A DNA stretch of 64,000 nt from Simonsiella muelleri ATCC 29453 (GCF_002951835.1 NZ_CP019448.1:2401382-2465381), one strand, 5' to 3'. Counted from the first letter of the stretch, positions 21,959 to 39,945 are shown. Program-made: numbers and translations. The notes: generated by a model from the sequence alone, not told the origin.

Positions 21959-22279
21959 TTAACCACCGTAAGCATTGCCGTCTTTATTGGTAGTATTACC
22001 GTAGTCATTACCGGATTGGTCTTTTTGTTTACTTTCTTGATAACATTCGTAACCAGTAGCAATACCACCACCAACAACACCTGTAGTGCCACCAACTATT
22101 CCACCAAAAGTTACAGTAGCAGGTGCAGACAATCCAGCAGTAAACGCAGAAACCCCTAAACCTACTGCACCACTTAATATCGCACCTGATTGCCCACCAT
22201 TTGCCATACCAGAAAGAGTAGTTGCGATACAACCAGCCCCACTTACAAGATTTAAATCATTTATTGATAATTCAATCAT
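21959..22279 (-). CDS. Gly-rich bacteriocin/microcin-like precursor (colicin V-like)
   Basis: The N-terminus MIELSINDLNLVSGAG fits the double-glycine leader consensus (LS..(E/D)L...(I/V).G(G/A)). The predicted mature part is Gly/Ala-rich with 2 Cys, as in ColV and MccL. The gene lies in an AT-rich segment. Confidence 0.5.
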   Translation of the reverse strand: MIELSINDLNLVSGAGCIATTLSGMANGGQSGAILSGAVGLGVSAFTAGLSAPATVTFGGIVGGTTGVVGGGIATGYECYQESKQKDQSGNDYGNTTNKDGNAYGG

Positions 22280-22308
22280 AATTTTTATCTCCTAATAAAA
22301 TGTTTAGT

Positions 22309-22503
22309 TTAGTGTTTTAAAAAATAAGTTGATATGGTGTAATTTGTTAAAATAAATAAAATCATAAAAGTAAATAATGCTCTACAATAAATTTGCATAT
22401 TAATTGTTGATGAATCACTAAAATACTCAAAAATAAATAATAATGGTGTTACAAGCAATAAAAGAGCATAAAAATATTTACAAAAAATCAAAATTTTAAG
22501 CAT
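22309..22503 (-). CDS. Small hydrophobic membrane protein; candidate immunity protein
   Basis: 64 aa with two predicted transmembrane helices, immediately upstream of and co-oriented with the Gly-rich peptide. This is the cvi-cvaC-like arrangement. Confidence 0.3.
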   Translation of the reverse strand: MLKILIFCKYFYALLLLVTPLLFIFEYFSDSSTINMQIYCRALFTFMILFILTNYTISTYFLKH

Positions 22504-22519
22504 TAAAATTTACTCCATA

Positions 22520-23674
22520 TTATGGCAATATAAACTCCAACACACCAACTATTGCCAACTCAAATATCAATTTATTCATTTTCTCCGAATTGATATTTTG
22601 GTTTTGGCAAAACTCATTCAGTTGACTCAATTCAACATAATGCTGGTCAGCTATCCATTGCAAAATGGTTTGACTGTCGTTATCCAAATTAGTTTTGATA
22701 CCATTGGCAATCACATAACCTTGTGTAATGGTGCGATTGTCCAGTGAATTGAGTTTGATTGTGCCATTTTCGGGAAGTCTGTCGTTGTGTGGATTGCCAA
22801 AAATCTGCATATTGAATGCGGTATCGGCACGGTGATCACCTAAAAACTCCTGTTTAAAGGTTTCGTAGTTTTCACGGTTTACTAATAATTTGGCTATGTT
22901 TTGCGCGGCAACCTGAATGCGATTTTGGTCGCTTTGCCAATTGTTTAAATTGTGGCGCAATTCCACAATGGACGGAACTTTTTTCATCAGCCATTCCATA
23001 TACTGATAGCCTGTTGGCGCAAACGTGCCGATTGCCAAATGGAACGTTTCACAATTCATGGGGACAGGACTATGCCACCAACCACGCGGAATGTATAAAA
23101 TATCGCCAGCTTCTAAAACCACTTCCATATCTGGGTGCTGTGGTTCGGGAACATTCACATCTTTGCTTTGTTGCATATAAAGAGGCATTTCAAAATTGGG
23201 CGCATACAGCGACCAATGCTTTTTGCCCATTAACTGAACCGCAAAGACATCTCGCGTATCCCAATGATTTTTAAATGAAGCATCACTACCAAATGCCAAA
23301 TAACCGCTCACTACAGTTTGAGCTTGCACAAATTGAGCAATGTGTTTGGCAATAGCATCGACCAAAGGCTCATTGTTAATCCGATTATAAACAATCGTTG
23401 CACCCTTGCGTAGATGTTCATAAACCGCAGCTTTATTGAAACGGTAACGAGTTCTGCCTATATCGTTAAAACTTTCCACATATGCCGATACTGGTACAAT
23501 TTCGCCTTTACGCAGACGGAACAATTCATCAACTGGATTGGCACGTTGATACAATTCATTGATATATTGCCAATCTATTGGTACGTCTTTAGCCGCACCT
23601 TTAAACAATTTAGGCTGCTTATACAAAAATTCCTGTCGAAAGTGTTCTGCAGTAATATTCAAATTTAAATACAT
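22520..23674 (-). CDS. JmjC / cupin-4 family 2-oxoglutarate/Fe(II) oxygenase (YcfD/RoxA-like)
   Basis: HxD..H facial triad (HWDTRD ... WWHSP) and an architecture like YcfD. The start at M7 (23674) is preferred for ribosome-binding-site spacing. There is a roughly 100 aa C-terminal extension. Confidence 0.65.
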   Translation of the reverse strand: MYLNLNITAEHFRQEFLYKQPKLFKGAAKDVPIDWQYINELYQRANPVDELFRLRKGEIVPVSAYVESFNDIGRTRYRFNKAAVYEHLRKGATIVYNRINNEPLVDAIAKHIAQFVQAQTVVSGYLAFGSDASFKNHWDTRDVFAVQLMGKKHWSLYAPNFEMPLYMQQSKDVNVPEPQHPDMEVVLEAGDILYIPRGWWHSPVPMNCETFHLAIGTFAPTGYQYMEWLMKKVPSIVELRHNLNNWQSDQNRIQVAAQNIAKLLVNRENYETFKQEFLGDHRADTAFNMQIFGNPHNDRLPENGTIKLNSLDNRTITQGYVIANGIKTNLDNDSQTILQWIADQHYVELSQLNEFCQNQNINSEKMNKLIFELAIVGVLEFILP

Positions 23675-24042
23675 AATGCAAATCTCTATCATTCCTAATT
23701 TTTAAGAAATTTTATTGTTGGATACTTTTCATTTGTCAATACCTTTTAAAAAATAATTTTTAATAAAAGAGATTTTGATTTTTAGGTACATCCATGGTTT
23801 TCTCAAATTTTAAAAATAAAACGGCTCACCCGAAGCACAAACGCACATTCAGAATTAAGCCGTTTTGGAAAGGTGGAATTAAGCCAATGAGTTTTTAGGT
23901 TCATCATTAGTTTAAAATTCAATCAATAAAAATCATTTTTGCACTATAAATTCAAATATTTTATAAAAATATTTAGAAAACATCGGGCGTTGTACAGGTT
24001 TCAGCGGGGGTATGGTGGCGATAAGCGAATCTAAAATTTGGC

Positions 24043-25392: not shown

Positions 25393-25645
25393 TGTTATTC
25401 TCTTTCTTATTGATAATGGGTTTTCAGGCTGCCTGAAAAAGTAGCCATATTCTAACAGAATACTGAATTTAGGCAGCTTGAAAATATTTTTGTGTATTTG
25501 AATTGCTGAACGTGCAGTTCTTCAGGCTGCCTTATTTAATCGGAATAATGAAATTTATAAAAATAATTTTAATTTAAAATCAATACTATTTACTTTTAAG
25601 TTTTTTATGCGTATTATTCTCATTAATGAAATAATTGAATTAATT

Positions 25646-26521
25646 ATGAAAAATAAATTTGTAAACTCAGTTAGTTGGGTTACCTGTACGTCATTGGCTC
25701 ATGCCGACTTGCCATTGAGTTTAGAAGAGCTGCTGACCGACAAAGGCAAACTTAAACTAGAAAGTAGCATCAGCTACGTGAATACAGAACGCAGCCAAAT
25801 GCAATTTGCCAACCCCATTTATGTACAAACCAGTGCAACCAATTTTGTCGCTGTTCCCACAGCCATCAATGAAACCGATAGCAATAGCGATATTGTGGTT
25901 GGCACGGTTGGTTTACGCTACGGTTTGACAGACAAAACCGATATTTACGGTAACACCAACTATTTATGGCGCAGCGACCGACAATTTAACGATTCAGGCA
26001 GCCTGAAAAAACGCAATAACAATTTATCTGATTTTTCGCTGGGCGTGAGCCACACGTTTATGCAAGATGGTAAAAATCCTGCATTAATTGGCTTTTTAGA
26101 AACATTGGTTTATGAAAAATCACAGGATAAAAAATCATTTGGAAAATCGTGGGTAGTTGGTGCGACGACTTACAAAGCGATTGACCCAGTTGTTTTGTCA
26201 TTGACTGCGACGTATCGCCATAATTTGAAGAAAAATATAGATGGGAATTCATATAAATCAGGGAATTATTTTATGCTGAACCCATCTATCAGTTTTGCAG
26301 CAAACGATAAAATTAGCTTAACGGGTGGTGTGCAATGGCTCAATGCACAAGCTGATACACAAAATGGCAAAAAACTGTCTGCTCGTAACACATCAACCTA
26401 CGCTCATGCTGGTATTGGTTATGGCATCACAAAAGATACTGCTTTGAATGCTTCTGTGCGTTGGAAAGCATCAGGGCAAAGCACTTCCGAATTAAAACTT
26501 GGTTTGACCTACAATTTTTAA
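25646..26521 (+). CDS. Putative outer-membrane beta-barrel protein
   Basis: Start moved to MKNKF at 25646. Signal peptide ..SLAHA|DL. Amphipathic strands and a C-terminal ..TYNF. The family is not assigned. There is a DUS inside the coding sequence at about 25993. Confidence 0.5.
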   Translation: MKNKFVNSVSWVTCTSLAHADLPLSLEELLTDKGKLKLESSISYVNTERSQMQFANPIYVQTSATNFVAVPTAINETDSNSDIVVGTVGLRYGLTDKTDIYGNTNYLWRSDRQFNDSGSLKKRNNNLSDFSLGVSHTFMQDGKNPALIGFLETLVYEKSQDKKSFGKSWVVGATTYKAIDPVVLSLTATYRHNLKKNIDGNSYKSGNYFMLNPSISFAANDKISLTGGVQWLNAQADTQNGKKLSARNTSTYAHAGIGYGITKDTALNASVRWKASGQSTSELKLGLTYNF

Positions 26522-26585
26522 GCAGCACCCCAGTAGTAACAGTAGTACTTTCTTTTTTAACTTTCAATATAAGGATTTTTCACTT

Positions 26586-27008
26586 ATGAAAACTAAAATC
26601 GCAACGGTAATTGCTATGGCTATGTTGTCTGCACCTGTGATGGCACAACAGAATTTAAATAGTTTGGATAGCCAAGTATTCGCCAATCAAAATATCAAGG
26701 CAGTGGAATTATCTCAAACTGAGATGAAAGAGACTCAGGGGGAGTGGGTTGCAAATGCGATTGGTGGTGTAATGGGTGGTGTTGGTGGTCATTTTGGTTA
26801 TATGGCAGGTGCTGCTTTGGCTGGCTCATACAACTTTAATGGACATATGGCAGCCATTGGTACTGGTGCAGCTGTTGGGGTTCTTAGTCCTGTTACGGGA
26901 GCAAGTACTTTGGTACATGGTATGAGGGGAGCTGCATTAGCAGGAGTTATTGGTGGTATTAACGGATATGCTGGTAATACTGGTAAAAATCATACTTTCC
27001 GCCGTTAA
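26586..27008 (+). CDS. Bacteriocin-like precursor, cassette 1. It has three modules: a Sec-like signal module, a conserved leader module, and a Gly-rich (glycine-zipper) variable module.
   Basis: MKTKIATVIAMAMLSAPVMA|QQ..., then ELSQTEMKETQGE, then WVANAIGGVMGGVGG.... The 5' 180 bp is duplicated at 27873-28045. The leader segment is duplicated at 27371-27432. There is an alternative GTG start at 26708, preceded by AAGG. Confidence 0.5.
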   Translation: MKTKIATVIAMAMLSAPVMAQQNLNSLDSQVFANQNIKAVELSQTEMKETQGEWVANAIGGVMGGVGGHFGYMAGAALAGSYNFNGHMAAIGTGAAVGVLSPVTGASTLVHGMRGAALAGVIGGINGYAGNTGKNHTFRR

Positions 27009-27086
27009 TTTATTAACTATTTGTAAATAAAATTTGCTACTAAACTAATTAATTAAATAAGTTTAGTAGCTTTCTTAGAGTTTATC

Positions 27087-27371
27087 ATGGTGTTATTATA
27101 TATAATGGCAACGGTTGGGTGCTTTCTAGGTTGCTTGAGAATGATTGAAAATATTGGACGAAAAAAATGGTTAAGTAATATCTTATTTCTTATTTCTACT
27201 TCCATATTAACATTATGTAGTATTGAAATTACTCATATAACCAATATGTTATCGTTCAATGATTCAATAAAGCAATTATTATATTATTTTTCTTATCTAT
27301 TTATTTTGATTTTATTCTTTTATTTTTTAGCGAAATATCTTAATAAAAGTTATAAAGATAAATCATGTTAA
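27087..27371 (+). CDS. Small polytopic membrane protein; candidate immunity protein for cassette 1
   Basis: 94 aa, very hydrophobic, about 25% GC, immediately downstream of the precursor. Confidence 0.35.
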   Translation: MVLLYIMATVGCFLGCLRMIENIGRKKWLSNILFLISTSILTLCSIEITHITNMLSFNDSIKQLLYYFSYLFILILFFYFLAKYLNKSYKDKSC

Positions 27372-27383
27372 AATGTTAAGGCA

Positions 27384-27500
27384 ATGGAATTATCTCAAAC
27401 TGAGATGAAAGAGACTCAGGGGGAAGTTGCTATTAGTTGCAGCAGCTTTGGGTGGCTTTTTTGGCGCAAGTTTGGCAAATACAGCAAGCAATCCTCGTAA
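27384..27500 (+). CDS. Orphan precursor, cassette 2 (38 aa). It starts with the conserved leader (MELSQTEMKETQGE) fused to a different C-terminus. A G5 tract sits at the junction.
   Basis: The ATG is preceded by AAGGCA, which is identical to the GTG context in cassette 1. The frame changes after the CAGGGGGAA tract. The +1 frame encodes KLLLVAAALGGFFGASLANTASNPRK up to 27503. Confidence 0.35.
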   Translation: MELSQTEMKETQGEVAISCSSFGWLFWRKFGKYSKQSS

Positions 27501-27513
27501 ATAATTTATTTTC

Positions 27514-27756
27514 ATGGTAATATATATGAGTGAATTAATTGTCTATTTCATTATTCCTGCGTTGAGTTTTGTTTGCGCAACATTGAGTTATTTAATTGTA
27601 AAATGGAAACAACTAGATAGGAAATATATGTATTTATTTCCTTTATTTCTTATCATTTTTGTTTTCTTAGGGATAGTGGAGTTTTACATGTTTGTTTTCT
27701 TTCTTTGCTCATGTTTTTATTCTATTTACTCATATTATGATCATGATGAAAATTAA
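27514..27756 (+). CDS. Small polytopic membrane protein; candidate immunity protein for cassette 2
   Basis: 80 aa, two to three transmembrane helices, AT-rich. Confidence 0.3.
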   Translation: MVIYMSELIVYFIIPALSFVCATLSYLIVKWKQLDRKYMYLFPLFLIIFVFLGIVEFYMFVFFLCSCFYSIYSYYDHDEN

Positions 27757-27918
27757 GTTTTACTATTAGCTATTAGTAAGTGTCGGGTGGGCAGTTATTG
27801 CCCACTCGTTCTGTGTTTGGTTGCAACAAAAATACCAGTATTTGTTTGGTTTAATTTACAATTTTTAAGTAGTCCCCAGTAGTAACAGCAGTATTTTCTG
27901 ACTATAAAATTTTCACTT

Positions 27919-28194
27919 ATGAAAACTAAAATCGCAACGGTAATCACTATAGCTATGTTGTCTGCACCTGTGATGGCACAACAGAATTTAAATAGTTTGG
28001 ATAGCCAAGTATTTGCTAATCAAAATATAAAGGCAGTGGAAATATTTTTGGGGCTTATTATTATCCCAATAGATTTTGTTATTTATTTAATTATTAAAAA
28101 ATACTTTCCTAAAAATGGGTTAATGATATTTATTCAAACTTTTACATTATCATTAATTAATTTTTTACTTTTGAAGTACATTTTGAAATTTTAA
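27919..28194 (+). CDS. Cassette 3: the same Sec-like 5' module as cassette 1, fused at the GTGGAA breakpoint to a hydrophobic transmembrane peptide
   Basis: The first 40 aa are identical or near-identical to 26586. Divergence falls exactly at the alternative start site. Confidence 0.35.
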   Translation: MKTKIATVITIAMLSAPVMAQQNLNSLDSQVFANQNIKAVEIFLGLIIIPIDFVIYLIIKKYFPKNGLMIFIQTFTLSLINFLLLKYILKF

Positions 28195-28383
28195 AAATAG
28201 ACTTCCGGCGAAACCGCAATTTTTCTAGATTTTAGAATTTTGCTAAATCCTGTAATTAAGCTTGTTTTAAAAAATGGGGATTATTGTTTCGCAGGAAGTC
28301 TACACTTTCTATAGTTTTATCCAAATTCCAACATTCAGGCAGCCTGAAATAGTTTTTGTGTACTGGCTCTTGGAGTAGAAGAA

Positions 28384-29049
28384 ATGATTGATTACGTGAA
28401 TAAAATTATGAAACAATATCTATTTATTTTTATTATATTTTTATCTGCATTCATTCATGCTCAACCACTTTATATAGAAAATCCAATTGTGCATCAAACC
28501 ATTCGCGTAAAAAGCTGGAAAGAAAAACGAGACTTCGGTATTGTGAAACAAGATTTGGATTTTTCCTGTGGTGCGGCTTCGGTTGCTACTTTGCTGAATA
28601 ATTTTTATGGACAAAGTCTGACCGAAGAAACCATATTGAATAAAATGGACAAAACCCAAATGCGAGCATCATTTGAAGATATGCAACGCATTATGCCTGA
28701 ATTGGGTTTCCAAGCTAAAGGCTATGCTTTGCCATTTGAACAATTGATGCAACTGAAAATCCCTGTGATTGTGTATTTGAAATACCGAAAAAATGACCAT
28801 TTTTCCGTTTTGCGTGGTATTAATGAGCATACAATTTTATTGGCAGACCCATCATTAGGTCATGTTTCCATGAGTAAATCTCAATTTTTAGATGCGTGGA
28901 AAACACGTGATGGCGATATGGAAGGAAAAATATTGGCAATTATACCTAAAAAATTAGATATTTCAGAAAATTCAATATTTTTTAATAAAAAACCGATTCG
29001 CCAAACACATTTTGCAGTCAAACAATTGTACATTTGGCAAAAACGTTAA
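28384..29049 (+). CDS. Standalone C39-family (double-glycine leader) peptidase-domain protein with an N-terminal signal/anchor
   Basis: Catalytic Cys motif DLDFSCGAASVATLL and His motif DHFSVLRGINEHTILLADPSLG, as in ComA/CvaB peptidase domains. There is no ABC transporter domain. 221 aa. Confidence 0.7.
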   Translation: MIDYVNKIMKQYLFIFIIFLSAFIHAQPLYIENPIVHQTIRVKSWKEKRDFGIVKQDLDFSCGAASVATLLNNFYGQSLTEETILNKMDKTQMRASFEDMQRIMPELGFQAKGYALPFEQLMQLKIPVIVYLKYRKNDHFSVLRGINEHTILLADPSLGHVSMSKSQFLDAWKTRDGDMEGKILAIIPKKLDISENSIFFNKKPIRQTHFAVKQLYIWQKR

Positions 29050-29137
29050 ATTGAAACAAACAAAAGGCTGTTTGAATGATTCAGGCAGCCTTTTCCGTTA
29101 TAATCGTATTATCTCAATACAAAACCTTTCTGATTTT

Positions 29138-36792: not shown

Positions 36793-39700
36793 TTAGAAGA
36801 AAATGCCATTATTGTAACGTTTAGGATTTATGCTGTAATTGGAAATTTCAGGCACAGGCAAACCTTCGTCTGTTGCTGCATCAGCGTGAGTCGGTGGCGA
36901 AGATAATGTAGCAGAACTATTAACAACAATTTGTTCTGGTTCATCTTTTTCAGCTGGCTCAATTCTGTCGTTGATGGCATCAATATTTTCAGCTTGTTCC
37001 GTTTGTAATGTATGTTTACGGAACACGGACGCAAATGAATTTTCACCAATTGTTTTGGGCGCAAATGGTGATTTTTTGGGTGTAGGCGTTTCAACAGGTT
37101 TTACCACTTCGCTGCTAACCGATGATACGGTATTCGTTTTTTCAATTGTTTGAGTTGGTGGAGTGTTTTCCGCTACTTGAGTTGTCTGAATTTTCGGTTT
37201 AACTGGAGAGGACTCAATTTCCACTCTAGGCGTAATTTCCCCTGTTGGTACGTTCGTGCTGCCTGAATTTTGTCCTGATTGAGCATTTACATTTGGTGTG
37301 TTTTTGGGTGCTACGACCACTTCAATAGTGGCTTTTTGTGGCACGGCTTGTACCGTAATTGTAGGTTTTTTGGGTTCTATCGTGTGAACCACTGGTACTA
37401 CAGAAATTTGTGGTTTTGTTTCTGCAACAGGTTGGTTGGCAATCTGAACGGATTCTACAGAAATTTCTGGTTTTGTTTCTGCAACAGGTTGGTTGGCAAT
37501 CTGAACGGATTCTATAGAAATTTGTGGTTTTGTTTCTGCAATAGGTTGGTTGGTAATCTGAACAGATTCTACTTCTATAGAGATTTCTGGCTTTGTTTCT
37601 ACAATAGGCTGGTTGGTAATCTGAACCGATTCTATTTCTACAGAGATTTCTGGTTTTGTTTCTACAATAGGCTGGTTGGTAATCTGAACCGATTCTATTT
37701 CTACAGAGATTTCTGGTTTTGTTTCTGCAACAGGTTGGTTAGCAATCTGAACAGACTCTATTTCTACAGAAATTTCTGGTTTTGTTTCTGCAACAGGTTG
37801 TGCAGGTTTGGTCAATTTGTCGGCTGGCAAACCTGCCATGCTTGCCTGTGTTAGATATTTTGCCAATGAACTGGTTTGTGGTGCAGAAGGTGCTTTGGGT
37901 GGCTCGGGCGCAATCGCTGGTGCAACAGGTCTTTTGTTTATGCTTACTGAAATATTTTTATTTTCAGTGGATTGGATTGTGGGCGTAGTCTTTTCCACAA
38001 CGGGTGTTGCGGCTGCCGATTGGGTCTCATCGGGTATGTATTTGGCGAAAATATTTGGTTTTTGGTTATTCGTTAAAATGGTGGATTTGGGTAATACCAT
38101 TTGCACGGGCGCGACGTGTAATTCTTCCTCTTCAATGACATGGCACACAGCTGCATTTGCAGGCTGCGTATTTTCAGATGATGTGGTGGGGGCTGCGGTT
38201 TGGGTAGGTTGTTGGGGTTCTGCATCATCTGGAGCTTCGGCGCGTGATACGGCAACGATTGTGCTGTCAGACGCATTGGCTAGTGCATCATTTTGCATTG
38301 CTTCAAATTCAGGTCGCTGCTTTTTGCCAAACAGCGAACAAAGCCAGCCAAAAAGTCCACCTTTAGACTTTCGTGGTGCAGATGAATTGGGTGCATTTGT
38401 ATTCATGTTATCAGACTCATTTGGCAAAGGTTGATTGGTTTCAATAATTTGTTCAGCATTTTTTTCAGGCTGCCTGAAAGATTCGGTGCTGGATTCGGTT
38501 ATGGTTTGTGGTGGTGTTGGTTCGGAGGCAATGGGTTTGCTTTCGGGCGACACAAGCGAAACAGGGGTATCGGTTGATTTAACCAATTTCGCATCTGTTT
38601 TCATGCCAACCAATGCGCTTGGTGGTGCGATAATTGGATTATTTGTCAAATTTTCGGGTGTGGCAACCGATTCATTGGTTTGGGTTGTGTCGGTTTGTGG
38701 TGTTTGTTCGCTGGATTTGGGTAACTCGGATTCAGTGATACTGGGTTGCGATGCAACATCATCAAATTCTTCGCCGATTACTTCGGGTTTGGGTAAATGC
38801 AAACCTGCTTCGGTCAGCACGGCATAAGCGGCTAATTCGTCTGTGTTTCGGCGTAGGTATTGGTGTAATTGCAAAAAATGCATTTCCAATTCTGCTGCAC
38901 GCGCAGGATGGTAATACCAATCCAGTACGGCATTTGCCAATTTTTCTGGTGTGGCATCTTTTTGCAGCAATTCAGGTACAACTTCTCTACCCAATAAAAT
39001 ATTGGGTAAACCCACATATTGAATTTTAATTTTGCGCTTGACTAATGCATAAGTCAAAGACGAAATACGGTAACTAATCACCATCGGACGTTTGCACAAA
39101 GCCACTTCCAATGAAGCAGTCCCACTGGTTACCAATACAACATCAGCTGCTATACACGCCAATTCGGTTTTGGCAGCCTGAAGACGAATGGGTAAATAAC
39201 GAAATTCTTCTTGTTGTAAATATTCTTGCAAACACTCGCGTACACCAGCTGAAGGGTAGGGCATCAAGAAGACAGCTTCAGGTAAGGCTTTGACAATTAA
39301 AGCGGCAGCACGTAAGAAAACCGGTGCCATATATTCCACTTCACTCACACGGCTACCGGGGAGCAATGTGAACACGGGTGCAGTCAAATTTAATTTCAAA
39401 CGTTCGCGCACGGCTTCGCGACTATTTTCCAGTGGCAGCATTTGTGCCAAAGGGTGTCCAACGTATTCTGCTTTGCCACCAGCATCACGATACAATTTGG
39501 GTTCCATTGGGAACAAACACAAAACCTGATTTACTTGACGCACGATTTTATGTACTCGCTCGGGTTTCCATGCCCACACCGAAGGGCTAACATAATGTAA
39601 AGTAGGAATGCCTGCGGCTTTTAATTTGGCAGCGACTGTTAAATTAAAATCGGGCGAGTCAATGCCAACAAAAACATGTGGGCTGATTTTGCGTAAATCT

Positions 39701-39945
39701 TCCACTAAACCACGGCGAATACGCAAAATTTCAAATAGGTTACCCAAAATTTCAGTATAACCGCGTACTGCTAGGGCATCTTGTTCATATAAGCTAATTA
39801 AACCAGCCGCTTTCATGCGAGGACCACCAATTCCGACAAAACGTGTATTGGGATACTGTTGTTTAAGTGCATCAATTAAATGTGCGCCGAGTAAATCGCC
39901 AGAGGCTTCGCCAGCGCAGAGTGCGATAATAATTTCTTTATTCAT
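36793..39945 (-). CDS. lpxB: Lipid-A-disaccharide synthase fused in frame to a roughly 660 aa low-complexity tail rich in Pro, Thr, Gln and Glu
   Basis: aa 1-385 are a full-length LpxB (GEASGDLLGAHLI ... GT-B fold). No stop follows. The tail includes seven copies of the 21-aa repeat KPEISVEIESVQI(T/A)NQP(I/V)(V/A)ET, which correspond to roughly 57-63 bp tandem repeats at 37395-37800. Confidence 0.8.
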   Translation of the reverse strand: MNKEIIIALCAGEASGDLLGAHLIDALKQQYPNTRFVGIGGPRMKAAGLISLYEQDALAVRGYTEILGNLFEILRIRRGLVEDLRKISPHVFVGIDSPDFNLTVAAKLKAAGIPTLHYVSPSVWAWKPERVHKIVRQVNQVLCLFPMEPKLYRDAGGKAEYVGHPLAQMLPLENSREAVRERLKLNLTAPVFTLLPGSRVSEVEYMAPVFLRAAALIVKALPEAVFLMPYPSAGVRECLQEYLQQEEFRYLPIRLQAAKTELACIAADVVLVTSGTASLEVALCKRPMVISYRISSLTYALVKRKIKIQYVGLPNILLGREVVPELLQKDATPEKLANAVLDWYYHPARAAELEMHFLQLHQYLRRNTDELAAYAVLTEAGLHLPKPEVIGEEFDDVASQPSITESELPKSSEQTPQTDTTQTNESVATPENLTNNPIIAPPSALVGMKTDAKLVKSTDTPVSLVSPESKPIASEPTPPQTITESSTESFRQPEKNAEQIIETNQPLPNESDNMNTNAPNSSAPRKSKGGLFGWLCSLFGKKQRPEFEAMQNDALANASDSTIVAVSRAEAPDDAEPQQPTQTAAPTTSSENTQPANAAVCHVIEEEELHVAPVQMVLPKSTILTNNQKPNIFAKYIPDETQSAAATPVVEKTTPTIQSTENKNISVSINKRPVAPAIAPEPPKAPSAPQTSSLAKYLTQASMAGLPADKLTKPAQPVAETKPEISVEIESVQIANQPVAETKPEISVEIESVQITNQPIVETKPEISVEIESVQITNQPIVETKPEISIEVESVQITNQPIAETKPQISIESVQIANQPVAETKPEISVESVQIANQPVAETKPQISVVPVVHTIEPKKPTITVQAVPQKATIEVVVAPKNTPNVNAQSGQNSGSTNVPTGEITPRVEIESSPVKPKIQTTQVAENTPPTQTIEKTNTVSSVSSEVVKPVETPTPKKSPFAPKTIGENSFASVFRKHTLQTEQAENIDAINDRIEPAEKDEPEQIVVNSSATLSSPPTHADAATDEGLPVPEISNYSINPKRYNNGIFF

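Follow-up and report, generated by a model that had tools for sequence, protein, structure and literature searches.

An AT-rich block of small genes lies at positions 26529–29049 of the window, that is, the whole stretch of 64,000 nucleotides of Simonsiella muelleri ATCC 29453 DNA that was analyzed. The initial annotation had described this block as an array of bacteriocin-like precursor and immunity cassettes accompanied by a standalone double-glycine (C39) peptidase, and the ORF calls place every ORF of that description where it had been put; the GC content (23–31%, against 40–50% in the flanks) also agrees with the composition claimed. The locus is bordered by a DEAD-box helicase gene on one side and by an RNB (RNase II-like) gene on the other, and no ABC transporter is encoded in it or in the rest of the 64-kb window. 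The gene directly upstream had been missed: it codes for a NapF/FapF-like outer-membrane protein (OMP), a putative pore, whose ORF opens at 25607 and whose likely start is MKNKF (Table 1).

Table 1. Features of the S. muelleri locus, with their positions in the window.
Feature	Position	Strand	Basis or remarks
Outer-membrane beta-barrel gene, NapF/FapF-like, putative export pore	25646–26521	+	Pfam and NapF identity
Precursor ORF, 140 aa	26586–27008	+	
Sec-type signal peptide of the precursor, MKTKIATVIAMAMLSAPVMA↓QQ	26586–26645	+	Read from sequence
33-aa acidic propeptide with double-glycine-type leader, QQNLNSLDSQVFANQNIKAVELSQTEMKETQGE	26646–26744	+	Conservation over 62 precursors
Predicted mature toxin, 87 aa, stop codon included	26745–27008	+	Long NapB orthology
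94-aa ORF, putative immunity protein for the 140-aa toxin, NapC homologue	27087–27371	+	
Orphan toxin remnant	27370–27500	+	38-aa ORF at 27384–27500
80-aa membrane protein, retained putative immunity gene of a lost P0143-type toxin	27514–27756	+	
Terminator-like GC-rich hairpin, then T-run	27784–27808	+	11 pairs, 7 of them G-C
Duplicated 5′ handle fused to a hydrophobic tail	27846–28194	+	Chimeric ORF at 27919–28194 (91 aa)
Standalone C39 cysteine peptidase with signal peptide, NapP orthologue, 221 aa	28384–29049	+	

The protein encoded at the 3′ end of the block belongs to the Peptidase C39 family, as indicated by its Pfam match (PF03412, 85 bits against a cut-off of 22, E = 5e-24, residues 52–173), its catalytic set, and its predicted papain-like fold. 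In an alignment with PCAT1, residues Q56, C62, H139, and D155 coincide with its oxyanion Gln and its catalytic Cys, His, and Asp, and they are invariant across 11 orthologues; the active site that had been read from the sequence, in a standalone protein with a signal peptide, is therefore intact on alignment. The N-terminus is a hydrophobic signal-like segment, which is conserved among the orthologues. An AF2 model of the protein (pLDDT 70; 75–89 in the core) has the C39 domains of PCAT1, ComA, and LahT150 as its top Foldseek matches in the PDB (E = 6e-8 to 1e-5; TM-score to target 0.72–0.78), and the sequence is 68% identical to NapP of Neisseria meningitidis. The best curated match is FapD (NF058616); however, its 100.5 bits fall far below the equivalog cut-off of 330 and no Fap subunit genes are present at the locus, so that an identity as FapD equivalog was rejected, as was an identity as FilB (NCBIfam NF050078; 88 bits against a cut-off of 475).

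The product of the upstream gene is about 290 aa long, has a signal peptide that ends AHA↓D, matches the Pfam family OMP_b-brl (34 bits), and is 60% identical to NapF of N. meningitidis. When a profile built from 30 sequences of this barrel family was compared with the PDB, FapF structures were the sole matches (E = 2.7e-5; best aligned stretch about 110 positions), whereas a single sequence reached only E = 0.5, and the AF2 single-sequence model was unusable (pLDDT 32). The homology to FapF is thus putative, with this one profile match and a statement by Poncin et al. in its favor. In 46 of the 52 species loci with sufficient flank, the C39 gene is preceded on its own strand by an OMP homologue.

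The precursor starts with a Sec-type signal peptide (signal peptides were assessed by visual inspection and a simple heuristic) in which a basic N-region and a hydrophobic core lead to a V-M-A site; the Ala at -1 is at least 90% conserved over 62 precursors. The propeptide that follows (pI 4.4) contains the leader, which is the only conserved part across these 62 precursors: L42, S43, and T50 are invariant, E46, M47, and G52 are conserved in at least 90%, and divergence sets in immediately past G-x, the Gly-rich region not being conserved. The motif LS..[EQ]M..T.G. was found in 85 ORFs of 67 related loci (shuffled expectation, 0.05), all of them upstream of the C39 gene and on the same strand. 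Its strict form is present in 266 of the 279 retrieved family members, with Ala at -1 in 208 (78%) and Glu in 45 (17%). The tandem of a Sec signal and a double-glycine-type leader (LSxxEMKETxG[A/E]), already pointed out in the initial annotation, is real and conserved. Cleavage is predicted after Gly52-Glu53 (...AVELSQTEMKETQGE↓WVAN...), and the predicted product would start at Trp54 (WVANAIGG...; about 8.37 kDa), giving a peptide of 87 aa and 8.4 kDa with a pI of 10.4, 25% Gly, and eight GxxxG motifs; mature peptides of the family have a median length of 67 aa and are Gly- and Ala-rich. Profile searches found no Pfam or NCBIfam family covering either the mature toxin or the leader. The whole precursor is 51–54% identical to “long NapB”, the full-length form known from N. 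lactamica, N. cinerea, and N. meningitidis. The leader has Thr at -4 instead of the usual hydrophobic residue, and the Glu at -1 of the S. muelleri precursor is not among the documented P1 residues of C39 peptidases, G-A being an accepted site (PMC5557850, PMC12219008). Since G-A and G-E precursors occur in one N. meningitidis locus, tolerance of the C39 enzyme at -1 must be assumed.

Pieces of this 5′ module are reused within the block. Positions 26577–26712 and 27910–28045 are 95% identical, and the repeat extends upstream (26499–26553 versus 27846–27899) into what is left of the OMP gene's final codons and stop; a second repeat of 55 nt, also 95% identical, relates 26689–26743 to 27370–27424. 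The junctions are at AAGGCA(G/A)TGGAA and at CAGGGGGA, as expected from the earlier description of two orphan cassettes that diverge at the start context and after the leader. The orphan at 27370–27500 contains the leader fragment ELSQTEMKETQGE, followed by a degenerate, frameshifted toxin of the P0143 type, and an alternative frame reads ...GGFFGASLANTASNPRK, matching the C-terminus of the full-length 143-aa toxin P0143. The other, at 27846–28194, has a handle that runs from the last OMP codons and their stop through the intergenic region and the signal peptide into the propeptide; homology in the chimeric ORF stops directly after AAGGCAGTGGAA. This chimera is present in S. muelleri haplotypes A, B, and C, and as a 5′-truncated copy in D. 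Three small membrane ORFs of the block had been taken for immunity-like genes, which suits those at 27087 and 27514, but the one at 27919–28194, a 5′ module with a hydrophobic tail, is no plain immunity gene. The 94-aa protein, encoded 79 nt downstream of the precursor, has three hydrophobic segments and is 34% identical to NapC of N. meningitidis (E = 4e-9) and 44% identical to the product of the gene after the orthologous toxin in Wielerella bovis; its gene persists in S. muelleri haplotypes from which the 140-aa toxin is absent. The 80-aa protein, which also has hydrophobic segments, is 100% identical to the product of the gene directly 3′ of the intact 143-aa toxin in two S. muelleri contigs (L084 and L085). 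Both are putative cognate immunity proteins.

Strains of S. muelleri have at least four cargo haplotypes in a common frame, with orphan toxin ends and retained putative immunity genes, and at least four toxin types (P0121, P0142, P0143, and P0145) are found behind an identical N-terminus. The idea of a conserved 5′ handle with swappable 3′ ends is in accordance with this variation, and an invariant block, which would have spoken against it, is not what the strains show. The toxin C-terminus and the small ORF downstream of it vary together in type: where two loci have similar downstream ORFs, the toxin C-termini are also similar in 54 of 59 pairs (a figure inflated by shared ancestry), several of which cross genera. 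These observations support the description of the block as a polymorphic array of bacteriocin-like toxin genes and putative immunity genes. Beyond Simonsiella, the order OMP, cargo, C39, in one orientation, has been found in Neisseriaceae, other Burkholderiales, Rhodocyclales, Acinetobacter, Oceanospirillales, Ectothiorhodospiraceae, and Helicobacteraceae, and a profile of the leader (family consensus PMQLAxLSxQEMKETEG[A/E]) retrieves 752 clusters at 50% identity across beta-, gamma-, and epsilon-proteobacteria.

The same organization is found in the nap island of Neisseria, which includes napF, napR, napA, napB, napC, napI, napH, and napP (Poncin et al., PLoS Biol 2025, PMC11798529). In both cases a barrel gene and a C39 gene enclose AT-rich cargo, the precursor and the 94-aa ORF have their counterparts in long NapB and NapC, and periplasmic cleavage by NapP followed by export through NapF is already the published model (PMC11798529). 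Judged from sequence, the frame of the S. muelleri locus is orthologous to the nap island and is not a new kind of system. The location is different, nap lying between NEIS0808 (pseudouridine synthase) and NEIS0794 (hisS), in contrast to the helicase and RNase II-like neighbors in S. muelleri. No napR- or napH-like ORF was noticed when the ORFs of the block were read, and the full-length toxin and the barrel, both intact in S. muelleri, are intact in neither case in the gonococcus. The nap island has been described as mostly limited to gonococcus and meningococcus, no Sec signals were noted on its cargo, and the crossing of the inner membrane was left open, with the holin NapH suggested for this step (PMC11798529). 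The cleavage sites proposed there also differ, since they are internal GG/GA pairs of apparent immunity proteins and of an orphan fragment.

We consider it probable that this locus, as the counterpart of the nap island in S. muelleri, secretes and matures polymorphic microcin-sized toxins by a two-step, Sec-dependent route. The 140-aa precursor would cross the inner membrane via Sec and lose its 20-aa signal peptide, leaving a periplasmic intermediate that retains the acidic propeptide, with the register L(-12) S E(-8) M(-7) T(-4) G(-2) E/A(-1). The periplasmic NapP-like peptidase would then cleave after G-E to release the cationic, Gly-rich peptide, which the NapF/FapF-like barrel would carry over the outer membrane. 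The propeptide probably holds the toxin harmless in the periplasm of the producer, as a safety catch, and may in addition address it to the pore as an export tag. The 94-aa and 80-aa polytopic inner-membrane proteins would confer cognate immunity against the presumed killing activity. Recombination at the conserved 5′ handle would bring in new toxin/immunity pairs, older toxin ends being displaced as orphans and immunity genes staying behind. The napR gene, which Neisseria islands also carry and which codes for an N-terminal leader with no Sec signal, does not fit the Sec route.

The initial annotation knew of no maturation route that combines a Sec signal ahead of a double-glycine-type leader with a standalone periplasmic C39 protease. 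A lack of precedent is not supported: NapP/NapF (PMC11798529) and FapD/FapF (Rouse et al., 2017, PMC5557850) are published pairs of a periplasmic C39 peptidase and an outer-membrane exporter. In the Fap system, substrates reach the periplasm through Sec, and FapD is a periplasmic, catalytically active protein required for secretion through FapF, a dedicated beta-barrel exporter (PMC5557850). Unlike Fap, the S. muelleri locus has none of the fapA, fapB, fapC, and fapE genes, and its cargo consists of polymorphic microcin-like peptides with putative immunity genes and not of repeat amyloid subunits. Its barrel is also probably too short for the long periplasmic coiled coil of FapF: the mature protein has about 270 aa and the alignment starts at about residue 20, which leaves little room for it. 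Finally, the family to which the S. muelleri precursor belongs has a conserved candidate cleavage site, whereas the substrate and recognition site of FapD are not known. The resemblance to class II microcins and their PCAT-type C39 domains (MccV/CvaB, ComA, LahT, PCAT1) lies in the leader register LSxxE(L/M)xx(I/T)xG(G/A), in a papain-like peptidase with Gln, Cys, His, and Asp, and in a predicted mature peptide below 10 kDa and rich in Gly, with a small membrane putative immunity gene adjacent. In contrast, the S. muelleri leader is internal: a 20-aa Sec signal and a spacer precede it, and its last residue is number 53. The peptidase is free in the periplasm and not the cytoplasmic N-domain of an ABC transporter, and the locus has no membrane fusion protein or TolC, with putative export through a FapF-like barrel instead. 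An identity as a PCAT/type I-dependent class II microcin was rejected on account of the leader position and of the missing ABC transporter. CdzC and CdzD of Caulobacter, which are secreted and antibacterial, resemble the S. muelleri cargo in their small size, their many glycine zippers, and their double-glycine-type leader, but they leave the cell through a type I (PCAT) system and lack a Sec signal. With polymorphic toxins (CdiA-CT/CdiI, Rhs, and MafB of Neisseria) the locus shares a conserved 5′ region, variable C-terminal toxins, differences between strains, a cognate (here putative) immunity gene immediately downstream, displaced orphan ends, and retained immunity genes; it differs in that the toxins of this type have only 30–95 aa when mature, with no large delivery domain, and in a predicted trafficking by Sec, C39, and barrel instead of the T5SS, T6SS, or MafB routes.

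The cargo has been interpreted otherwise in the nap literature, where the small hydrophobic ORFs (NapA and NapC homologues) and short fragments are GG-cleaved cationic peptides that, once processed by NapP and exported by NapF, drive stationary-phase autolysis or host-cell lysis and not bacterial competition. Deletion of napRABC reduces gonococcal autolysis, fewer cells survive stationary phase when synthetic mNapA and mNapC are added, erythrocytes are lysed by mNapC, and the synthetic gonococcal “mature Naps” showed no antibacterial activity (Poncin et al., PMC11798529); the frame of the S. muelleri locus and two of its cargo genes are, moreover, orthologous. We regard an extension of that interpretation to S. 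muelleri as rather unlikely. The internal GG/GA sites are not conserved (SFNDSIKQ in S. muelleri against SDGG↓GIKY in NapC, SDEDGTKY in one meningococcal NapC, and GT or GY at the NapA site in other Neisseria), and the small ORFs are polytopic, occupy the position of immunity genes, and covary with toxin type. NapB of the gonococcus is the 3′ end of a precursor that N. lactamica, N. cinerea, and S. muelleri have in full, signal peptide and leader included, and gonococcal NapF is truncated to 180 aa; autolysis could be a by-product of a decayed toxin/immunity island. If the toxin/immunity reading holds, the synthetic gonococcal “mature Naps” would not be true mature products.

An export of Gly- and Ala-rich peptides for surface fibers or biofilm, with toxicity secondary or absent, would account for the FapD and FapF matches, and the Gly-/Ala-rich class II microcins MccAB1 and MccE492 do form amyloid and promote biofilm (PMC13188072). 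We find such a matrix function improbable, given the distance of the peptidase from the FapD cut-off and the absence from the locus of homologues of FapA, FapB, FapC, and FapE, in addition to a cargo devoid of imperfect amyloid repeats. Cargo polymorphism within one species, with paired membrane proteins, orphans, and retained partners, fits conflict systems and not structural subunits; toxin and amyloid roles could in any case coexist, as reported for MccAB1. That the Gly-rich proteins are housekeeping envelope or stress proteins of the OsmB/YmgG glycine-zipper type, lying by chance beside an unrelated peptidase, is suggested by the UniRef name of the 140-aa protein (“Glycine zipper 2TM domain-containing”) and by a weak Gly-zipper_YMGG match (E = 0.0026) in one of the 62 precursors. 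The 140-aa protein itself has no Gly-zipper Pfam match even at E ≤ 1 and falls outside these families; it has no lipobox, its signal ending VMA↓QQ with no Cys. Conservation in the family resides in the leader and not in the Gly-rich region, the genes are strictly linked to C39 and OMP genes, and the locus varies between strains, by all of which a glycine-zipper identity is largely refuted and has very little probability left.

The reading of the locus as a Sec-dependent toxin module would have consequences beyond S. muelleri. We found no published description of the tandem of Sec signal and double-glycine-type leader, and this cargo architecture, together with the breadth of the family, looks undescribed. 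We lean slightly toward the view that it marks a widespread, unannotated route in beta-, gamma-, and epsilon-proteobacteria, in which polymorphic microcin-like toxins would pass through Sec, an internal leader, a periplasmic C39 peptidase, and a FapF-like barrel. Current microcin screens tie the leader motif to the N-terminus (PMC12219008), and a class with an internal leader would therefore go undetected; if the reading is correct, the whole class has been overlooked by such screens. For Neisseria, the reading would mean that NapA and NapC, as published, are immunity proteins and that NapB of the gonococcus is a fragment of an orphan toxin. Finally, the conserved leader would be a first sequence-defined candidate substrate for the class of periplasmic C39 peptidases that includes FapD.

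The AT-rich block reported in the initial annotation was recovered with every listed ORF in its place, and its GC content, 23–31% against 40–50% on either side, agrees with that description. Its boundary has been revised, since the gene for an outer-membrane beta-barrel protein (OMP) directly upstream of the precursor gene had been overlooked. Copies of the palindrome TTCAGGC(A/T)GCCTGAA lie at 25421-25437, 25993-26009, 28334-28349 and 29079-29094; they form terminator-like hairpins around the island, with one copy within the OMP gene, and look like the Neisseriaceae DNA uptake sequence in its Kingella/Simonsiella dialect.

Coordinates of the genes and ORFs of the island
Feature	Position	Strand	Remark
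OMP beta-barrel gene, 291-304 aa	25607/25646-26521		Pfam OMP_b-brl; directly upstream of precursor
140-aa precursor (T140)	26586-27008	+	ORF in window sequence
94-aa ORF (I94)	27087-27371	+	ORF in window sequence
38-aa ORF	27384-27500	+	ORF in window sequence
80-aa ORF (I80)	27514-27756	+	ORF in window sequence
91-aa ORF	27919-28194	+	ORF in window sequence
221-aa ORF (C39 peptidase)	28384-29049	+	ORF in window sequence

The standalone, signal-bearing C39 peptidase that had been proposed is supported. The 221-aa protein matches Pfam Peptidase_C39 at 85 bits (cut-off 22), lacks an ABC domain and, when aligned to the peptidase domain of PCAT1, has Q56 as the oxyanion Gln and C62, H139 and D155 as the catalytic Cys, His and Asp. 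These four residues are invariant across 11 orthologues, all of which begin with a hydrophobic, signal-like segment, and an AlphaFold model of the protein (pLDDT 70) finds its best PDB matches in the C39 domains of PCAT1, ComA and LahT150. The best curated NCBIfam matches, FapD (100 bits, cut-off 330) and FilB (88 bits, cut-off 475), fall below their cut-offs, and the protein is accordingly placed among the free periplasmic C39 proteins, distinct from both. In 13 betaproteobacterial loci, L043:3113-3700 and L051:9285-9863 among them, the C39 gene is immediately preceded by a gene for a conserved membrane protein of ~190 aa; its hosts are Thauera, Parazoarcus, Sulfuritalea, Rhodocyclaceae, Achromobacter, Delftia, Lautropia, Comamonadaceae and Hydrogenophaga. 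This protein belongs to no Pfam family, is not present in the window and may, in those lineages, add a further component to the system.

Orthologues of the peptidase at ~68% identity occur in hundreds of Neisseria meningitidis genomes. In this species the C39 gene adjoins hisS, a 289-aa OMP gene lies 4–5 kb upstream beside a pseudouridine synthase gene, and small variable ORFs fill the space between them; this locus is the nap island of Poncin et al. (PMC11798529), bounded on one side by napF, encoding a FapF-like pore, and on the other by napP, encoding the periplasmic C39 peptidase. The window OMP is 60% identical to NapF, and a profile of 30 OMPs from related loci matched only FapF structures in the PDB (E 2.7e-5), so that one profile match, together with the literature, points to a relationship between the OMP and FapF. 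A single-sequence AF2 model of the window OMP (pLDDT 32) was not used as evidence. The frame of the S. muelleri locus is therefore of a kind already described, with kinship to the Fap machinery of Pseudomonas. The initial view that the route had no precedent is thus given up, the locus being orthologous to an island published in 2025 (PMC11798529) and related to Fap. Some metagenome contigs of S. muelleri (L084:2670-3584, L085, L008:4022-4935) have a split or frameshifted NapF-like OMP gene, which reflects either an inactive exporter in part of the population or assembly errors.

The precursor, 100% identical to S. muelleri JF634_06935, starts with a typical Sec signal (MKTKIATVIAMAMLSAPVMA/QQ), continues with an acidic propeptide of 33 aa (pI 4.4) ending in ELSQTEMKETQGE, and closes with 87 cationic, Gly-rich residues (8.4 kDa, pI 10.4, eight GxxxG motifs). 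Its homologues have the N-terminus in common and unrelated C-termini. This design was followed through 68 species-level loci encoding C39 relatives (43–74% identity), from Neisseria, Kingella, Conchiformibius, Tepidimonas, Lautropia, Thauera, Parazoarcus, Achromobacter, Bordetella, Delftia, Massilia, Herbaspirillum, Methylotenera, Acinetobacter, Marinospirillum, Oceanospirillum, Ectothiorhodospiraceae and Helicobacteraceae MAGs. Where at least 3 kb of upstream sequence was available (52 loci), a same-strand OMP homologue precedes the C39 gene in 46 loci, a leader-bearing ORF is present in 43, and both are found in 41. The motif LS..[EQ]M..T.G. was counted in 85 ORFs across 67 loci, in every case on the strand of the C39 gene and upstream of it, against a shuffling expectation of 0.05, and the pairing of a Sec signal with a double-glycine-type leader, as first suggested, is upheld by these figures. 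In an alignment of 62 precursors only L42, S43 and T50 never vary; conservation is at least 90% at A20 (the signal peptidase site), E46, M47 and G52, and divergence begins directly after G-x. A leader profile run against 1.84 billion cluster representatives retrieved 752 clusters with E<=1e-3, of which 282 reach E<=1e-10, and every one consists of small proteins; the strict motif is present in 266 of 279 retrieved members, whose predicted mature peptides have a median length of 67 aa, with 17% Gly and 14% Ala.

Placed in register, the leader is L(-12) S(-11) x x E(-8) M(-7) x x T(-4) x G(-2) A/E(-1), the pattern of double-glycine leaders (LSxxELxxIxGG). The invariant Gly is followed by Ala in 208 and by Glu in 45 of the 279 members; G-A is an accepted C39 cleavage site (PMC5557850, PMC12219008), and the G-E of the S. 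muelleri precursor is a rarer variant. Cleavage right after the invariant Gly, which would place it at -1, is less likely because the conserved L, M and T would then leave the canonical -12, -7 and -4 register. None of the 62 precursors reached a Pfam or NCBIfam threshold, and their database names are without exception 'hypothetical protein'. The motif strings (EMKETEG and variants) turned up in no paper on full-text search, and a search for work linking FapF/NapF, C39, microcins and signal peptides gave Poncin 2025 as the one relevant report; in Zhang et al. (2012) C39 appears solely as a toxin domain. Large microcin screens currently require the leader to sit at the N-terminus (PMC12219008), and a Sec-plus-leader class would therefore go unseen by them.

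At least four arrangements have been found between the same OMP and C39 genes in S. muelleri genomes and metagenome contigs, so that the block is not invariant among strains. Written with T for a full precursor, I for a small downstream ORF and the length in aa, haplotype A (the window) reads OMP, T140, I94, 38-aa orphan, I80, 91-aa chimera, C39; haplotype B reads OMP, T147, I114, an orphan T186-type C-terminus, I116, I75, I94, orphan, I80, chimera, C39; haplotype C reads OMP, T186, I116, I75, I94, I80, chimera, C39; and haplotype D has OMP (split), T143, I80, I114 plus further genes, among which are I94 and a second orphan T143 C-terminus with I80 after it. The one complete precursor is always the gene next to the OMP; older toxin ends are displaced and lack signal and leader. 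The expected variation of 3' ends behind a constant 5' handle (signal peptide and part of the propeptide, with the intergenic stretch upstream) is thus seen across S. muelleri haplotypes and related loci, and cargo differs between two Wielerella bovis genomes as well. I94 is kept in S. muelleri strains without T140, and the window I80 is 100% identical to the gene directly after the intact 143-aa toxin of haplotype D. When all locus pairs were compared, 54 of the 59 with similar downstream ORFs were also similar in the toxin C-terminus (odds ratio ~360, a value inflated by shared ancestry); such pairs across genera include Wielerella-Simonsiella-Neisseria, Massilia-Tepidimonas and Thiotrichales-Sulfuritalea. 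Like microcin immunity proteins, I94 and I80 contain two to three hydrophobic segments. In L042:6233-9494 (Thiotrichales MAG) and L060:2795-8332 (Helicobacteraceae MAG), four complete leader-bearing precursors stand in tandem, every one with a small ORF of its own behind it; besides the layout of one active gene plus orphans there are thus arrays with several intact toxins.

Reuse of the 5' modules had been proposed, and two matches of 95% identity were found in the window: 27910-28045 repeats 26577-26712, with homology ending after AAGGCAGTGGAA, and the 55 nt of 27370-27424 repeat 26689-26743, with homology ending after CAGGGGGA; both end points agree with the initial annotation. The first repeat extends upstream (27846-27899 resembles 26499-26553), and so this second handle copy, from 27846 on, holds a relic of the final codons, stop included, from the gene preceding the precursor. 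A simple immunity gene at 27919-28194 was ruled out, the ORF being a chimera of 5' handle and hydrophobic tail. An alternative frame of the 38-aa ORF ends in ASLANTASNPRK, as does P0143, the full-length 143-aa precursor of S. muelleri, and the ORF is a remnant of that toxin, frameshifted and with an internal deletion. The leader's invariant Gly is coded inside a five-G run (26738-26744, and 27419-27425 in the CAGGGGGA copy), and the orphan leaves the frame of the P0143-type toxin exactly there. The napR gene of Neisseria undergoes phase variation through a poly-G tract located at its GG site (PMC11798529); slippage in the five-G run could switch toxins on and off.

Other roles and routes have also been weighed. 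Housekeeping glycine-zipper proteins, which the initial annotation had named as a refuting outcome, were rejected, since the Gly-rich proteins fall outside the OsmB/YmgG families. Pfam and NCBIfam scans of the window ORFs, the 62 precursors and seven candidate immunity/accessory proteins gave no toxin, immunity or accessory match above threshold, so the toxin mechanism is not assignable by homology. Clustering of toxin C-termini by BLAST merged 45 Gly-/Ala-rich sequences into one cluster, probably through low-complexity similarity, and no toxin-family count is given for this reason. Service of the island peptides by a PCAT transporter elsewhere in the window was rejected, as no PCAT/MFP transporter was found within the 64 kb. 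On the minus strand, 21959-23692 is a second, classical bacteriocin locus. Its 106-aa peptide has a double-glycine leader at the N-terminus (MIELSINDLNLVSGAG) and is weakly similar to MccV in Pfam; the locus further holds a hydrophobic ORF of 64 aa and a JmjC/cupin protein of 390 aa. This layout is that of the Acinetobacter baumannii microcin MccAB1, with immunity gene and the cupin McaB, which is needed for MccAB1 activity (PMC13188072); some S. muelleri contigs (L008, L013) carry a split cupin gene. Also on the minus strand, a 1050-aa ORF (36793-39945) has LpxB (lipid-A-disaccharide synthase) as its first 375 residues; for the other 675, unusually long as an extension of LpxB, Pfam gave no match at E<=0.01.

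The main rival is the published Nap model, and the autolysis phenotypes measured by Poncin et al. stand as data. According to their supplementary sequences, NapA and NapC are hydrophobic ORFs of 96 and 98 aa after toxin genes, and I94 is 34% identical to NapC. The internal GG/GA sites proposed for NapC/NapA are not conserved, with SFNDSIKQ in the window, SDEDGTKY in another meningococcus and GT/GY in other Neisseria. The 56-aa NapB of gonococcus and meningococcus is the 3' end of a longer gene, which in N. lactamica is full-length, with signal, leader and Gly-rich domain, and 51–54% identical to the window precursor. Signal peptides were noted only for NapF and NapP (PMC11798529). In N. gonorrhoeae DSM 9188 the nap island (L081:6780-10156) has no precursor with signal and leader left; NapF is truncated to 180 aa, and only napR, napA, the 56-aa napB fragment, napC, napH and napP are kept. 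A second standalone C39 gene of that assembly (L020) is preceded by a 78-aa ORF 40% identical to I80. On this comparison, the conserved substrate of NapP-type peptidases would be a Sec-preceded double-glycine-type leader, and the gonococcal island a decayed version of such a toxin locus. Neisseria napR, with a classical N-terminal leader and no Sec signal, does not fit the Sec route.

Each functional step of the island is read from sequence. The precursor would be exported by Sec and cut by signal peptidase, leaving a periplasmic pro-form in which the acidic propeptide masks the cationic peptide. The periplasmic C39 peptidase would then cut after G52-E53 (predicted junction KAVELSQTEMKETQGE-WVANAIGG); in Fap, the active-site Cys of the periplasmic C39 peptidase FapD is required for secretion through FapF (PMC5557850). 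The mature peptide would leave via the FapF-like barrel and act on neighbouring cells, probably at the inner membrane given its Gly-zipper character and membrane-embedded partner proteins; I94 would protect the producer, and recombination at the ~200-nt 5' handle would diversify the cargo. The initial interpretation holds for the architecture, which comparative loci support, and fails for the lack of precedent, nap and Fap relatives being published. The locus is an orthologue of the system published in 2025, a new member of the Nap/Fap type and not a new type of machine; what appears to be new is the family-wide Sec-plus-leader design, its breadth, its missing annotation and the reinterpretation of the Nap peptides.

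The leader would provide periplasmic C39 peptidases with a concrete candidate recognition sequence, no substrate having been named for FapD since 2017 (PMC5557850). The ~750 clusters of predicted small secreted peptides, with members in Neisseria, Kingella, Acinetobacter, Achromobacter, Bordetella, Delftia and Helicobacteraceae, have no Pfam/NCBIfam model and lie outside current microcin-mining rules. The Sec signal would give Nap-type cargo a way over the inner membrane, the step left open by Poncin et al. (PMC11798529). Finally, the gonococcal 'Naps' may be immunity proteins plus a toxin remnant, in which case the autolysis phenotype would read differently.
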